24,000 nt of DNA from Gammaproteobacteria bacterium (GTDB taxonomy: Bacteria > Pseudomonadota > Gammaproteobacteria > CAIRSR01): the NCBI GenBank assembly GCA_963575655.1, contig CAUYTY010000210.1:1-24000 (forward strand). Direction: 5' to 3'. A program made the position numbers and the translations under genes. A model generated the notes under the pieces. It did not search any database and was not told the origin of the DNA. It saw only the letters and a list, made by a program, of their open reading frames with translations. Below, piece after piece: positions 613 to 3,737 of this stretch; positions within the stretch are counted from its first letter, which is position 1, and each line of letters opens with the position of its first letter.

Positions 613-794
613 ATGACTAAGTCAGAAATTCGCGTCCCCTAATAGAATAATAATGAGCGTTCATCTCGAATACCTTTCCTGATACAGGATACCACGAGTT
701 TCTCAACGCTTTAGGGATTGCGACTGTGGTTGTACCCATAGTCACGATATTGTACGATGCGCCCAAGAACATCGAACATGCCTACAACATATAA
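613..794 (+). pseudogene. Decayed copy 1 of the tandem small-peptide gene family
   Basis: It has the conserved start context gcatccATGACtaag. The reading frame stops after 9 codons (taa tag at 640-645). The homologous C-terminal part (NTFPDTGYHEFLNALGIATVVVPIVTILYDAPKNIEHAYNI*) lies in another frame (open 657-794) with no start codon. The RR motif is lost, and the segment is 1 nt shorter than in copy 4. Confidence 0.6.
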
Positions 795-813
795 TCATTC
801 GGATAATTCACGC

Positions 814-998
814 ATGATCCTACCGGAAATTCACACCTCTCCCGAAAAAATACTTTACCAACTGTTCCTGATAGCTTACCTAACATTGAACGGCGCAAGT
901 TACTCAAATACCTTGGTGCTACGGCTGCGATTGTCCCTGTAGTAACTGTATTACACGATGTGACCAAAAACGTCACCCATGCCTATCTTCCCGGCTAA
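814..998 (+). pseudogene. Copy 2 of the small-peptide gene family, split by a 1-nt frame change in an A6 run (845-850)
   Basis: ATG 814 opens the frame of listed ORF 757..942. The homologous part (...NTLPTVPDSLPNIERRKLLKYLGATAAIVPVVTVLHDVTKNVTHAYLPG*) is in the frame open 807-998, which has no start codon. One extra A in the A6 run gives a continuous 61-aa peptide, MILPEIHTSPEKNTLPTV... Confidence 0.65.
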
Positions 999-1154
999 CT
1001 AACCCAAGCTGCTACCTATCCGTTATTTCGACAGAGATTGCTGGAATCCAGAACGCAAGAACGTAAGTCACCAACCAAACCATCCATGGCGCCTGGATTT
1101 CGGGAATTCCTGTCGGAATGACAGTTGGATTAAGTCGTAGGTAGAAACTTTTGT
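998..1154. mobile_element. MITE-like element, copy C (157 bp), TA-flanked, inserted between peptide genes 2 and 3
   Basis: The terminal inverted repeats are actaacccaagctgctaccta (998-1018) and taggtagaaacttttgt (1138-1154). TA lies at 996-997 and 1155-1156. Its interior is homologous to the copies at 19448-19544 and 3737-3827. Deleting it restores the 18-nt spacer typical of the array. Confidence 0.75.
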
Positions 1155-1175
1155 TAACTGTTCAAGAGTTCATCC

Positions 1176-1355
1176 ATGACCAAACAAGAAAATCACACCA
1201 CTTCCGATCAAAAAGCCGTACTGACTGTGCAGAATACCTTACCCGATATCGATCGTCGCAAGCTACTCAAACGCCTGAGTGCTGCGGCTGTGGTTGTTCC
1301 CGTAGTAACCGTATTACACGACGCAACCAAAAATAACGCCCATGCCTGCCCCTAA
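1176..1355 (+). CDS. Small peptide, copy 3 (59 aa), Tat-signal-like candidate precursor
   Basis: Hand translation: MTKQENHTTSDQKAVLTVQNTLPDIDRRKLLKRLSAAAVVVPVVTVLHDATKNNAHACP*. An aagag RBS-like motif lies about 10 nt upstream. It differs from copy 4 mostly at third codon positions in the conserved half. It falls below the 60-aa track cut-off. Confidence 0.75.
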   Translation: MTKQENHTTSDQKAVLTVQNTLPDIDRRKLLKRLSAAAVVVPVVTVLHDATKNNAHACP

Positions 1356-1373
1356 CCACTCAGGAGTTTATCC

Positions 1374-1550
1374 ATGACTAAACCAGAAATGCCTCTCCCC
1401 TCCGATCGAAACAATACGCTGTCCGTCCCGAACACCCTTCCTGACATCGAGCGCCGCAATCTGCTCAAACGTTTGGGAACCGCAGCCATAGCTGTACCCG
1501 TAGTGACGGTATTACACGATGCAACTAAAAATGTCGCACATGCCTATTAG
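1374..1550 (+). CDS. Small peptide, copy 4 (58 aa), Tat-signal-like candidate precursor
   Basis: Hand translation: MTKPEMPLPSDRNNTLSVPNTLPDIERRNLLKRLGTAAIAVPVVTVLHDATKNVAHAY*. An aggag RBS lies 9 nt upstream. It starts 18 nt after the copy 3 stop. Confidence 0.75.
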   Translation: MTKPEMPLPSDRNNTLSVPNTLPDIERRNLLKRLGTAAIAVPVVTVLHDATKNVAHAY

Positions 1551-1590
1551 TAATGGTAAGAAATTCCCGTAACGCTACTACCCTCTTCTC

Positions 1591-2871
1591 ATGTTGAATC
1601 ATCCCCCCATCGCCGTCGGCATCCTCGGTGCCGACGACAGACCCGACATCGTCGAGACTATTCGTTCCGTGCGTTGCGTAGGTCTGCCAATTCACGTGGC
1701 AGTGACAGCTCGGCGATCACTGTTGGAGGGGTTCGATGGCGTCATCCAGCATGTCATTCACTGGAACGAGGATTTTTCCAGCGCTCGCAACCAATTATTG
1801 GAGCAGATAGACAGTGATTTCGTTCTGTGGCTGGACAGCGACGAACGGTTATTGTCGTTTCCCGAGATCGATGTGTCTCGATTGGAAGAAGACTTTTACA
1901 CTGTCCATTTGCAAGCCGATCGGTGGACCACTCCTGGACGAAGTGCTCGATTTCATCGCAATCACCCGCTCATTCGCTGGCACGGTTCAGTTCATGAACA
2001 ACCGCTAAAAAACGGACAATTACCACCGTATTCCTCGCGAATGCTACCGGGAGCAGCCATCATCCACTGGGGGTACGAGGATCCGGAAATCCTGGCCGGC
2101 AAGAATGAACGCAATGTAGCCATTGCGCAATGCGGACTGAATCGGGGGGAGTTACTTTTCGGAGAGTTACTTTCCCTGGCGAAGAGTGAAACCAGTTTAG
2201 GACTATTCAATTTCATGCGCTGGTTGCAGTGCTTTCGTCACCCGGAGATACAACCTAATGCTATCGATTACGACCGCCGTAGCGAAGCAGCCTACATGCT
2301 ATGCACCTGTGGCTACAACAGATTCGCCCAGGATCTGGCGCGCGCCAATCCGCTGATTGTCCGTTTGCAGCTTGGTCTACTTGCGGATGGGTGGCGCAAA
2401 CATCGCGCACTAGATGCCACGCGGTTTGAGTTTCTACTAACCGTGCTGCAAAATGGTCTCTTCGACCAACGCTACAGTTTTTCAGTAGAGCTGGTCGGCT
2501 GTAGTCATGACCAATTAACCCGCTATATCCACGCCCTAACCGCAGAATGGGGGGAACGGAGAGAAATCATGAACACAACTACTACCACCGACTCCTTCGA
2601 TCCCACCGCTACCTATCGCCGCAACGACGATGTGCAAGAAGAAACGATTGAAGAGGATCTCATCCTAATGCACTACCCCACTCTCAAGGCAGTGGTGCTT
2701 AACCCCATCGCGGCCGTGCTTTGGGATGCCTTACGATGGCCTCAATCGGCAACCGATCTGGCCAGTTTGCTACACGAGGCGTTTCCACAAGAAGATGCGA
2801 CCGCCCAACACACCCATGCCGAGGAGGTTCTTGCACAGTTGGCGGCGAGTGGCCTGATTCAACCTTCCTGA
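1591..2871 (+). CDS. Family 2 glycosyltransferase fused to a C-terminal PqqD/RRE-like peptide-binding domain
   Basis: The N-terminal ~190 aa carry GT-A motifs: WNEDFSSARN, DxD-type LDSDE, and HGSVHEQP. The middle is helical. The last ~80 aa (about nt 2623-2868), LILMHYPTLKAVVLNPIAAVLWDAL..ATDLASLL..EEVLAQLAASGLI, fit the PqqD family pattern. Confidence 0.8.
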   Translation: MLNHPPIAVGILGADDRPDIVETIRSVRCVGLPIHVAVTARRSLLEGFDGVIQHVIHWNEDFSSARNQLLEQIDSDFVLWLDSDERLLSFPEIDVSRLEEDFYTVHLQADRWTTPGRSARFHRNHPLIRWHGSVHEQPLKNGQLPPYSSRMLPGAAIIHWGYEDPEILAGKNERNVAIAQCGLNRGELLFGELLSLAKSETSLGLFNFMRWLQCFRHPEIQPNAIDYDRRSEAAYMLCTCGYNRFAQDLARANPLIVRLQLGLLADGWRKHRALDATRFEFLLTVLQNGLFDQRYSFSVELVGCSHDQLTRYIHALTAEWGERREIMNTTTTTDSFDPTATYRRNDDVQEETIEEDLILMHYPTLKAVVLNPIAAVLWDALRWPQSATDLASLLHEAFPQEDATAQHTHAEEVLAQLAASGLIQPS

Positions 2872-3737
2872 TCCCGTCTATTTCTCTGCGGAAACATGAT
2901 ATCAACCGCACGTTCCAGGTCGTGCTCTCCTACATGCAGACGATAGACCTCGCCGCGTTCCAACAGGAATCGCAGGATCCGAACCATATCGAGGGGAGTA
3001 CGTCGAGCGGTGATCATGGTCTGAGCAAGAATGCCTTGAAGCGCCGTCTGTCTATCCACTTTTTCGACATGACTGGTGGGACCTATGGCCCGATCCAGCA
3101 TATAGAGTCGGGCAATGGAATAATCCTGTGTGTAGTCAGCCATCTGCGGTAATCCTCGACCGATAATCAGACGGTACTCATCGTTAATCTGGCCTACCAG
3201 GCAGTGGTCCACCGAGAGTCGTCCAACCAGGTGCGCCGGAACCGCCCGCCCAGCCACACGCGGCTTGAGCGCCTTGGGAAAAACGAACGCCCGATGGCAG
3301 TCAGAGTCAACCGCCAGCCAGTCGTCAACAATGACCTCCCGGCCAGCCAACCACGCGGCAAGCGCTAGGCTGCTCTTGCCCACCCGCGACGGCCCGGTGA
3401 ACAGGATCGCTTGCCCATCCACCACACAGGCTCCCGCATGCAGGACTAGATGCCCAGTCTTCTGCAGAAACCGCCCACCCATAAGGGCGATAACGTTGAG
3501 CAGCAGGTCATTCCAGAATTCGAAACGATAAGTAACCACTGCGGATTCGAGGACCCAACCATCATTCCCGATGCGTCGTACCTCTAGATCTGGCGGCCCA
3601 TCCGTCACGGAGAGTGTTAGCGGTGGCAACGCCAACAAATGGCCCACCACGCGGGCAACGCCCGCTTCTTCCGTGCGCAAAATAATAAAACTGTCCCGCC
3701 AACAGAAACGAAAATGAAATGGATGAACCATAATCAA
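2859..3737 (-). CDS. HprK-related serine kinase-like protein (HPr kinase C-terminal-type P-loop)
   Basis: ILFTGPSRVGKSSLALAAWLAGREVIVDDWLAVD resembles the HprK GxSGxGKS..L...G..LV.DD core. It is convergent with the GT2-PqqD gene and overlaps it by 13 bp. The listed start is TTG (3735-3737). An alternative ATG lies at 3729-3731. Confidence 0.75.
   Translation of the reverse strand: MIMVHPFHFRFCWRDSFIILRTEEAGVARVVGHLLALPPLTLSVTDGPPDLEVRRIGNDGWVLESAVVTYRFEFWNDLLLNVIALMGGRFLQKTGHLVLHAGACVVDGQAILFTGPSRVGKSSLALAAWLAGREVIVDDWLAVDSDCHRAFVFPKALKPRVAGRAVPAHLVGRLSVDHCLVGQINDEYRLIIGRGLPQMADYTQDYSIARLYMLDRAIGPTSHVEKVDRQTALQGILAQTMITARRTPLDMVRILRFLLERGEVYRLHVGEHDLERAVDIMFPQRNRRDQEG

Follow-up and report, generated by a model that had tools for sequence, protein, structure and literature searches.

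We describe here a small gene cassette close to the start of a 24,000-nt stretch of contig CAUYTY010000210.1 from a gammaproteobacterial genome assembly (GCA_963575655.1); this whole stretch is referred to below as the window. The cassette comprises a tandem array of small-peptide genes, a gene for a 426-amino-acid (aa) protein predicted to join a glycosyltransferase (GT) to a peptide-recognition domain, and a convergent gene for an HprK/PEPCK-type kinase. It is probably a copy, reduced and in part decayed, of a cassette that is conserved but uncharacterised and resembles those for peptides synthesized by ribosomes and modified post-translationally (RiPPs), one in which cytoplasmic enzymes would modify small ribosomal peptides. 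A RiPP-like interpretation had been put forward in an earlier note on this DNA; it is supported as far as sequence analysis reaches, and those of the tests named there that were run came out favourably. Two features go beyond that note, namely the shape of the peptides, which is that of twin-arginine translocation (Tat) signals, and a further partner found in most relatives, a protein of the NTP_transf_5 family. Whatever is said below of peptide binding by the recognition domain, of which sugar and which residue take part, of the sequence of steps, of the route of export and of biological role is inferred.

The peptide array consists of four head-to-tail units of ~198 bp (start-to-start distances of 201, 363 and 198 bp; mean column identity 75%). 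The spacers are 19 nt between units 1 and 2 and 18 nt between units 3 and 4, and the gap between units 2 and 3 is 165 bp longer. These spacings and the 75% identity agree with the earlier note's description of four tandem paralogous units 18–19 nt apart once an insert is removed, and the ATGAC start context that it had seen in three of the four is found, as atccATGAC, before units 1, 3 and 4. Units 3 and 4 had been read as intact, and they are, with the correction that only these two remain so, units 1 and 2 being dead. Unit 1 (613–794, + strand) is a pseudogene copy with in-frame stops after codon 11 and with the RR motif changed to YH. Unit 2 (814–989, + strand) is frameshifted by a 1-nt deletion at an A-run near 846, so that the conserved C-terminal half (LPNIERRKLLKYLGATAAIVPVVTVLHDVTKNVTHAYLPG) lies in another frame than the ATG at 814, and the frame of this half is devoid of any in-frame start codon. 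Unit 3 (1176–1355, + strand; CAK0768398.1) encodes a peptide of 59 aa, MTKQENHTTSDQKAVLTVQNTLPDIDRRKLLKRLSAAAVVVPVVTVLHDATKNNAHACP, and unit 4 (1374–1550, + strand; CAK0768408.1) one of 58 aa, MTKPEMPLPSDRNNTLSVPNTLPDIERRNLLKRLGTAAIAVPVVTVLHDATKNVAHAY, with AGGAG 8 nt upstream of its start codon. The two peptides have different tails (Y versus CP).

The analysis shows the peptide genes to be coding and to be under purifying selection. In the C-terminal half, units 3 and 4 differ with a nonsynonymous rate (dN) of 0.148 and a synonymous rate (dS) of 1.318, a ratio of 0.11, and third codon positions hold 20 of the 29 differences; in the N-terminal 21 codons the ratio is 0.43. The proposal that the peptide rather than the DNA is being conserved is thus borne out. 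We take the genes to be real because of this low ratio in the conserved half, because homologues occur in 36 protein clusters and because two residues of the family, P42 and L47, are invariant.

The homologues are 48–79 aa long, and the names given to their clusters at source are all generic ("hypothetical protein", and once "predicted transcriptional regulator"). An alignment of 19 diverse members, in which P42 and L47 are invariant and R27 nearly so, gives the consensus xxRRxLLKxLxxAxxxxPxATxLxDxxxNxAFAxx, preceded by a variable, polar N-terminal stretch of ~25 residues. Inside sub-clades conservation is strongest in the C-terminal ~20 residues, and the N-terminus drifts. There is no conserved Cys in the 19 aligned peptides and no Y/WxxP motif; the invariant P42 and L47 form a PxxxxL element. 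Among 43 distinct peptide types, 35 have the RR pair and 21 end in S, T or Y, and a further five carry S, T or C directly ahead of a C-terminal Pro or Pro-Leu. In nearly all 43 types the residues ahead of the tail fit the −3/−1 rule of signal peptidase I.

The 426-aa enzyme (CAK0768418.1; 1591–2871, + strand) starts 40 nt after unit 4 and carries the motifs WNEDFSSARN, LDSDE and HGSVHEQP, just as first reported. It is a three-part protein, with a GT-A domain at about residues 1–165, an all-helical part at about 165–322 and a PqqD-type RiPP recognition element (RRE) at about 340–426. An AlphaFold2 model built from a ten-ortholog alignment (pLDDT 87.8, pTM 0.85) shows the GT-A domain, the all-helical domain, a disordered linker (324–333) and a three-strand/three-helix module (342–419). 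In a Foldseek search of the PDB, SunS and ThuS are the best matches (E = 2e-13 to 6e-12), and since the alignment runs over ~360 columns, the match spans the GT-A domain together with the helical domain. A profile of the same ten orthologs searched against the PDB matches GmaR (3.5e-20), SunS (5e-16) and ThuS (5e-14) with the catalytic motifs aligned, and the SunS-type motifs earlier recognised in the N-terminus are thus upheld by profile and fold alike. The LDSDE sequence (1831–1845, + strand), a DxD-type metal/nucleotide-sugar motif, lines up with GmaR's DADE and SunS's DADN; its residues D82, S83, D84 and E85 are invariant in the ten orthologs, as are W58, F62, R66, N67 and W80 upstream and H135, E136, H159, G161, Y162, E163, K171, R174 and N175 downstream; the DxDE, HEQ and HxGY motifs are likewise invariant.

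The RRE (2608–2871, + strand) is composed of three strands followed by three helices. Pfam PqqD matches residues 358–423 with 28.4 bits, above the gathering score of 23.4, in line with the earlier placing of such a domain in the last ~80 residues, and the ortholog profile, in its C-terminal part, matches TbiB1 and two PqqD-family chaperones of lasso type at ~7e-4. By sequence and model the protein is a SunS/GmaR-type GT-A enzyme fused to a PqqD/RRE domain; it is a distant relative of SunS and, at 25 bits against the TIGR04195 cut-off of 350, not its equivalog. Longer variants of this GT-RRE fusion, of 709–837 aa with an extra N-terminal region, also occur (P0006, at 6001–8130 of locus L001; P0012; and a gene at 4753–7266 of locus L025). 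The additional region of P0006 resembles a second, degenerate GT module in which LNSSE replaces LDSDE, and is probably catalytically dead.

The P-loop kinase of HprK/PEPCK type is encoded on the opposite strand (2859–3731, − strand), convergent with the GT-RRE gene and overlapping it by 13 bp (2859–2871). It had been described as a convergent HprK-type protein of 292 aa; the P-loop family and the overlap hold, and the length is likely to be 290 aa, because the N-termini of the orthologs favour the ATG at 3731 over the TTG at 3737 as the start. In the Walker A loop GPSRVGKS (3372–3395, − strand), G113, G118 and K119 are invariant in 12 orthologs. The kinase profile finds HPr kinase 3tqf in the PDB (2.3e-6), and the NCBIfam model TIGR04352 (HprK_rel_A) is the most frequent match of all 12 orthologs, at scores far below its cut-off: 18.5 bits against 200 for the window kinase and only E = 2.5e-11 for the best ortholog. 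Matches of HprK type at such low scores indicate an HprK/PEPCK-type kinase of its own family. The expected TIGR04352/TIGR04353 pairing fails on both sides, as the PqqD domain scores 13.1 bits against TIGR04353 (PqqD_rel_X; cut-off 35). When the two enzymes were checked against family hidden Markov models (HMMs), as had been suggested, PqqD came out above threshold and HprK-related models matched, while GT2 stayed below threshold. One kinase ortholog, P0159 (278 aa, the length of the kinase in locus L011, described below), carries the precomputed label PF27840.1, an entry not in the Pfam copy used.

Related loci support the RiPP-like reading. For this comparison a set of 19 distinct full-length loci was assembled, the window included, with HMMs built from the first examples. 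The GT-RRE fusion is rare: a word-indexed search gave 11 clusters among 5.8 billion, and an exhaustive profile search of 1.84 billion representatives gave ~25–30 full-length matches, while the GT domain alone is common to thousands of large multidomain proteins. Among the hosts of the 19 loci are Sulfitobacter, an isolate of Burkholderiaceae, metagenome-assembled genomes (MAGs) from Gammaproteobacteria and other Proteobacteria, Planctomycetaceae, Pirellulaceae and a MAG labelled Verrucomicrobia. The cassette of the cultured strain Sulfitobacter sp. HGT1 (NZ_BLWI01000013.1, locus L017) is complete, with NTP_transf_5, GT-RRE and kinase genes and three peptide genes. One to four copies of a homologous peptide gene lie beside the enzymes in all 19 loci, so that the adjacency of enzymes and peptide genes, which had been set beforehand as a test, is seen throughout; the kinase is present in 17 of the 19, and an NTP_transf_5 (PF14907) protein of ~380 aa in 14. 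The gene set is strictly co-located across phyla. Its order differs between clades, being NTP_transf_5–peptides–GT-RRE–(GT2)–kinase in some, peptide–kinase–GT-RRE–NTP_transf_5 in others, and peptides–GT-RRE with a convergent kinase in still others, which argues for functional linkage rather than inherited synteny. Look-ups that started from the peptide found a full cassette in two of three cases and an orphan peptide gene in the third. This orphan (5971–6183 of locus L105; ending ...SETAFPY) has no GT-RRE, kinase or NTP_transf_5 gene within 6 kb.

The nearest relative of the cassette described here, locus L011, is 52% identical and shows the same convergent overlap. An NTP_transf_5 gene is found neither in the 24-kb window nor in L011. 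The peptide array starts ~0.6 kb from the window start, and unit 3 is the second annotated gene of the 28,151-nt contig. Given this position, and the remnant of an IS30 transposase at the kinase, the NTP_transf_5 gene may have been lost here or may be sited outside the window or the contig; both are possible. The remnant (3802–4284, − strand) adjoins the kinase gene and retains only the last 54 residues of the profile (NF033563, E = 4e-19). It does not belong to the system and marks the broken edge of the cassette beside the kinase, where truncation may have occurred. A further element, between units 2 and 3, is an insertion of ~165 bp (992–1154, strand not assigned) with long imperfect inverted repeats, and had been called a miniature inverted-repeat transposable element (MITE). 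Its 30-nt hairpin arms (77% complementary; DNA fold z = −2.25) and the TAACT direct repeats that bracket it (987–991 and 1155–1159) justify the term MITE-like, but a second copy is absent from the 24-kb window.

Variation among the relatives may bear on the chemistry. In the clade whose peptides lack RR, the cassette is followed by a gene for a PIG-L-type homologue (GlcNAc de-N-acetylase family) of ~380 aa. In two of these loci only PIG-L was detected in the product (L008, 7275–8417; L014, 12413–13555), in L009 (2528–3676) a C-terminal PqqD domain was detected as well, and the copy in L015 (4869–6026) is assigned by homology to the other three. A PIG-L enzyme that bears a PqqD domain is hard to explain without a peptide-borne sugar, and it hints at an N-acetylhexosamine (HexNAc). 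As a separate observation, the Planctomycete-type loci L012, L024, L104 and L106 have two peptide genes each. In L104 and L106 one peptide has a tail of the type ...YPY or ...FCS and the other ...AFGEA, and L012 and L024 have tails of the ...AFG(EA/DP/HP) kind on both peptides. In L012, L104 and L106 the GT-RRE and kinase genes are separated by an additional small GT2 gene.

These data can be combined into a tentative scheme. PqqD-type RRE domains bind precursor peptides and deliver the substrate to a fused or partner enzyme. Here, the PqqD/RRE tail of the 426-aa enzyme would bind the middle of the peptide, through R-x-x-[LI][LI]-K-x-L followed by P-x-x-x-x-L, and the SunS/GmaR-type GT-A domain could then modify a Ser, Thr, Tyr or Cys residue of the conserved C-terminal stretch with a sugar, probably HexNAc. 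The HprK-type kinase would phosphorylate a hydroxyl residue at or near the peptide C-terminus; this step is proposed because homologues act in this way in phosphorylated lasso peptides and in the linear polyphosphorylated peptides (LPPs) of Bacillota. Finally, the NTP_transf_5 enzyme, whose gene was not found here, may decorate the phosphate further in most relatives. Precedents exist in that HprK homologues phosphorylate the C-terminal Ser of paeninodin-type lasso precursors, that in pseudomycoidin a nucleotidyltransferase adds hexoses to the phosphate (PMC8498205), and that LppK polyphosphorylates Ser3 of the LPP core (PMC13381572).

Several points weigh against this reading of the cassette. 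First of all, the product and the modification of every family member are predicted ones only. Second, the Pfam GT2 and NCBIfam SunS scores of the 426-aa protein are under the curated cut-offs (25 bits against 350 for the SunS model TIGR04195), the HprK homology of the kinase is confined to ~50 residues around the P-loop, and its AlphaFold2 model, made from a four-sequence alignment, reaches a pLDDT of only 45 and is unusable. Third, none of the Ser, Thr or Tyr positions of the peptides is shared by every one of them, and 17 of the 43 types end in GD, GEA, GDP, GHP, EPGP or EPGA, without a terminal hydroxyl. Fourth, no protease or exporter is conserved in the 19 loci. Finally, the copy described here has no NTP_transf_5 gene, two of its four peptide units are dead, and it is accompanied by the IS30 remnant and the MITE-like insert, for which reasons it may be decaying.

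The main alternative, which is an extension of the RiPP-like reading and does not contradict it, concerns the fate of the peptides. In units 3 and 4, D/E-R-R-x-L-L-K is followed by 14–15 uncharged residues, a Lys-bearing polar stretch, A-H-A and then one or two residues. The RR-bearing peptides might thus be true Tat signals which, after modification in the cytoplasm, are exported by Tat and cut by signal peptidase I after x-[AG], leaving as product either a modified tail of very few C-terminal residues or a peptide that stays in the membrane and displays its modified C-terminus in the periplasm. Across the family, [DES]-R-R-x-[LFA]-[LIV]-K fits the S/T-R-R-x-F-L-K consensus and is followed by 13–15 uncharged residues and a polar c-region with a basic residue, with small residues at −3 and −1 (AHA, TFA, AFA, AFG); these features can be made out by eye in the 35 of 43 types that have RR. 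Profile scores are borderline: against TIGR01409 (NCBIfam TAT_signal_seq), unit 4 scores 16.7 bits, equal to the cut-off of 16.7, and unit 3 scores 16.5, while 3 of 19 family peptides match this model and 8 of 19 match formate_TAT. Among 26 peptides that were scored for their best 13-residue hydropathy, the 22 with RR reach 1.25–2.8 and the four without it 0.2–1.3. The latter four all end in EPG[TPA]. Across clades, the RR motif and the hydrophobic stretch come and go together. Furthermore, the Tat translocon and signal peptidase I, as housekeeping machinery, would explain why the 19 loci share neither an exporter nor a protease of their own.

Export through Tat is nevertheless a possibility that we hold to be rather unlikely. 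Only one to four residues lie past the putative cleavage site, which means that there is no cargo, and these tails vary between paralogs of one locus, as with Y versus CP here. The EPG[TPA]-tailed clade is without both RR and the hydrophobic stretch, yet it has the same enzymes, and Tat targeting therefore cannot be the core function of the family. In addition, the same helix-plus-strand region is the obvious predicted RRE-binding site, which would explain its conservation without export, and the literature searched gave no link between Tat signals and RiPP precursors. The likeness to Tat signal peptides covers RR-x-[LF]-[LI]-K, the uncharged h-region, the polar c-region, the small −3 and −1 residues and the fact that nearly the whole product is signal-like; the peptides differ from them in having just 1–4 residues after the putative site and in the one clade that has no RR and no h-region. 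Small proteins made up of a Tat signal alone are represented by TIGR02811, and in Phr-type and enterococcal pheromone precursors a signal-peptide-like small open reading frame (ORF) carries a short C-terminal product. We know of no Tat substrate that is paired with an RRE-fused enzyme.

It is also conceivable that the peptides are not substrates at all, being instead small membrane or regulatory peptides or chaperone-like partners of the PqqD domain, and that the glycosyltransferase, kinase and NTP transferase have some other acceptor, for instance a surface polysaccharide or a different protein. This we consider improbable. Several related loci do lie amid genes of polysaccharide type (GT2, GT10, GT29-like, LicD and capsule synthesis), and GmaR, the best sequence match of the GT, glycosylates flagellin and not a RiPP precursor. 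In the window, however, no polysaccharide genes are near the cassette, and across the loci it is the peptide genes, at 19 of 19, that are the most constant neighbours of the enzyme, above any polysaccharide gene. PqqD-type RREs are known, moreover, as binders of precursor peptides, and the PIG-L enzyme of one clade bears a PqqD domain too. A capsule setting also has a counterpart among the described systems, as LPP clusters too lie in capsule loci (PMC13381572), a parallel that counts towards another acceptor. A cofactor-like pathway to a small molecule, in the manner of mycofactocin or pyrroloquinoline quinone and drawing on the C-terminal residue, is unlikely, given that the tails differ between paralogs and that there is no radical S-adenosylmethionine enzyme.

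The notion that the tandem units are non-coding repeats, either a repeat array or a regulatory RNA with accidental ORFs, draws on the lack of an intact ORF in two of the four units and on the absence of any standout promoter-like or terminator-like signal (scans that were themselves uninformative, with one promoter-like site where 3.8 were expected and four terminator-like sites where 3.6 were), but is effectively refuted by the dN/dS of 0.11 with differences gathered at third codon positions, by protein-level homologues in distant phyla where DNA similarity is not expected, by the lack of any Rfam match at E <= 0.1 and by the AGGAG ahead of unit 4.

The RiPP-like cassette, as we favour it, combines parts of the HPr-rel-A, glycocin, lasso peptide and LPP systems and is a member of none. 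No description of it or of its peptides was found in Pfam, NCBIfam or the literature searched, and both are probably undescribed; RRE–glycosyltransferase fusions are listed, and not studied, in papers on RRE genome mining (PMC7470986, PMC12710340). Among described systems, the LPPs of Bacillota (Popov et al., Nat Commun 2026, PMC13381572) come closest. The two share linear ribosomal peptides, a PqqD-type RRE and an HprK-like kinase, both have an NTP_transf_5-type transferase (here in most relatives), and neither has a macrolactam cyclase; the likening of LppN and LppK to the transferase and kinase of the cassette is by description. In addition, the LPP leader is cut by an enzyme of signal-peptidase-I type, and the peptides here bear a −3/−1 site like that of signal peptidase I. 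The differences are substantial. The RRE is discrete in LPP clusters, whereas here it is fused to a SunS/GmaR-type glycosyltransferase; the cassette is without a dedicated SpI-like peptidase and MsbA-like exporter, and no member of the signal-peptidase families was found in the 18 window ORFs of at least 99 aa or the 10 cassette-flanking proteins of related loci that were scanned. The LPP leader motif, YxxPxVLxHQxIxFETxxS (PMC13381572), of which YxxPxVLxHQ is the part to be compared, contrasts with R(R)xLLKxL...PxxxxL, and it is the central and C-terminal part of the peptide that is conserved here, while the N-terminus varies. LPPs are, as reported, restricted to Bacillota, while the hosts here belong to Gram-negative phyla. 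The absence of the SpI peptidase, the discrete RRE and the YxxP leader rules out membership of the LPP family.

SunS and ThuS (PDB 7msn, 7msp and 7msk) are the best structural match of the GT, act on ribosomal peptides and have the motifs WxxDFxxARN, DxD(E/N), HE(Q/E), HxGY and KxxRN in common with it; on the other hand, sequence identity is only 16–19% and the PqqD domain is absent from them. The precursors of glycocins form Cys-rich helical hairpins with nested disulfides, and thiol-disulfide oxidoreductases and a bacteriocin ABC transporter are encoded in the same clusters. Such transporter and disulfide genes are neither beside the cassette in the window nor conserved in the related loci. 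Since it lacks both a Cys-rich core and a transporter, the cassette does not count as a glycocin cluster. GmaR is a flagellin O-GlcNAc transferase. The GmaR of Listeria (PDB 22ao), the best sequence-profile match of the GT domain (3.5e-20, profile positions 10–191), has a folded protein as its substrate and a different C-terminal part, and comes without a PqqD domain, kinase partner or peptide genes.

With the lasso peptides paeninodin and pseudomycoidin the cassette shares an HprK-homologous kinase, which in those systems acts on a C-terminal Ser, and S, T or Y is the last residue in about half of the present peptide types. In contrast to them, it has no lasso cyclase, B2 protease, YxxPxL leader or core with a ring-forming Asp/Glu. 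No Asn-synthetase-like cyclase or B2 protease was present in the Pfam matches of the scanned window ORFs or in the called genes of related loci, and a lasso peptide cluster is ruled out by the absence of both. The HPr-rel-A system (TIGR04352/TIGR04353) similarly pairs an HprK-related kinase with a PqqD-family peptide chaperone, whereas the PqqD domain of the cassette forms the C-terminal end of a glycosyltransferase; the scores given above (18.5 against 200 and 13.1 against 35) rule out membership.

The remainder of the window contains several features apart from the cassette. At its very beginning (1–60) are three 21-bp tandem repeats, ataccgatcgcaagtttcaag, encoding a DTDRKFQ heptad; the ORF that contains them enters at the window edge and ends at 506, with a weak DUF3782 match and nothing in NCBIfam. 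A GlcD-like FAD-linked oxidase gene (4289–5683, − strand) follows the IS30 remnant, and the L008 cassette is also flanked by an oxidase gene, though a different one (FAD_binding_4/ALO; 8544–9806, − strand); the presence of oxidase genes beside both cassettes is probably a coincidence. Further along are a Mla lipid-transport set (6792–10873: MlaA, MlaF, MlaE, MlaD, MlaC and a STAS protein) and a second, longer MlaE (18234–19448) whose STAS_2 match is weak (E = 5e-4) and falls short of the gathering score. Between them lie a SmaI-type restriction endonuclease (13609–14367), an N4/N6 DNA methylase (14353–15246, − strand) and an adjoining DDE_3 transposase (15477–16502).

If the favoured reading is true, this RiPP-like cassette would stand for a natural-product family of ribosomal peptides that is new and belongs to Gram-negative bacteria, in which a glycocin-type peptide glycosyltransferase is joined to the kinase and nucleotidyltransferase chemistry so far known from lasso peptides and the LPPs of Bacillota. 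It would also provide a concrete peptide substrate for the HprK-related kinase, for RRE–glycosyltransferase fusions and for NTP_transf_5, an enzyme for which the LPP study (PMC13381572) was unable to demonstrate activity. An RRE-fused glycosyltransferase that works with a short recognition sequence could, furthermore, serve for leader-guided glycosylation of peptides. More broadly, Tat-shaped precursors, together with the covariation of RR and hydrophobicity, prompt one to ask whether general export machinery can stand in for an exporter and protease belonging to the RiPP pathway itself. Should the Tat-coupled proposal prove true, this would be the first RiPP-type pathway tied to Tat, and it would give a function to genes that encode little more than a signal peptide.

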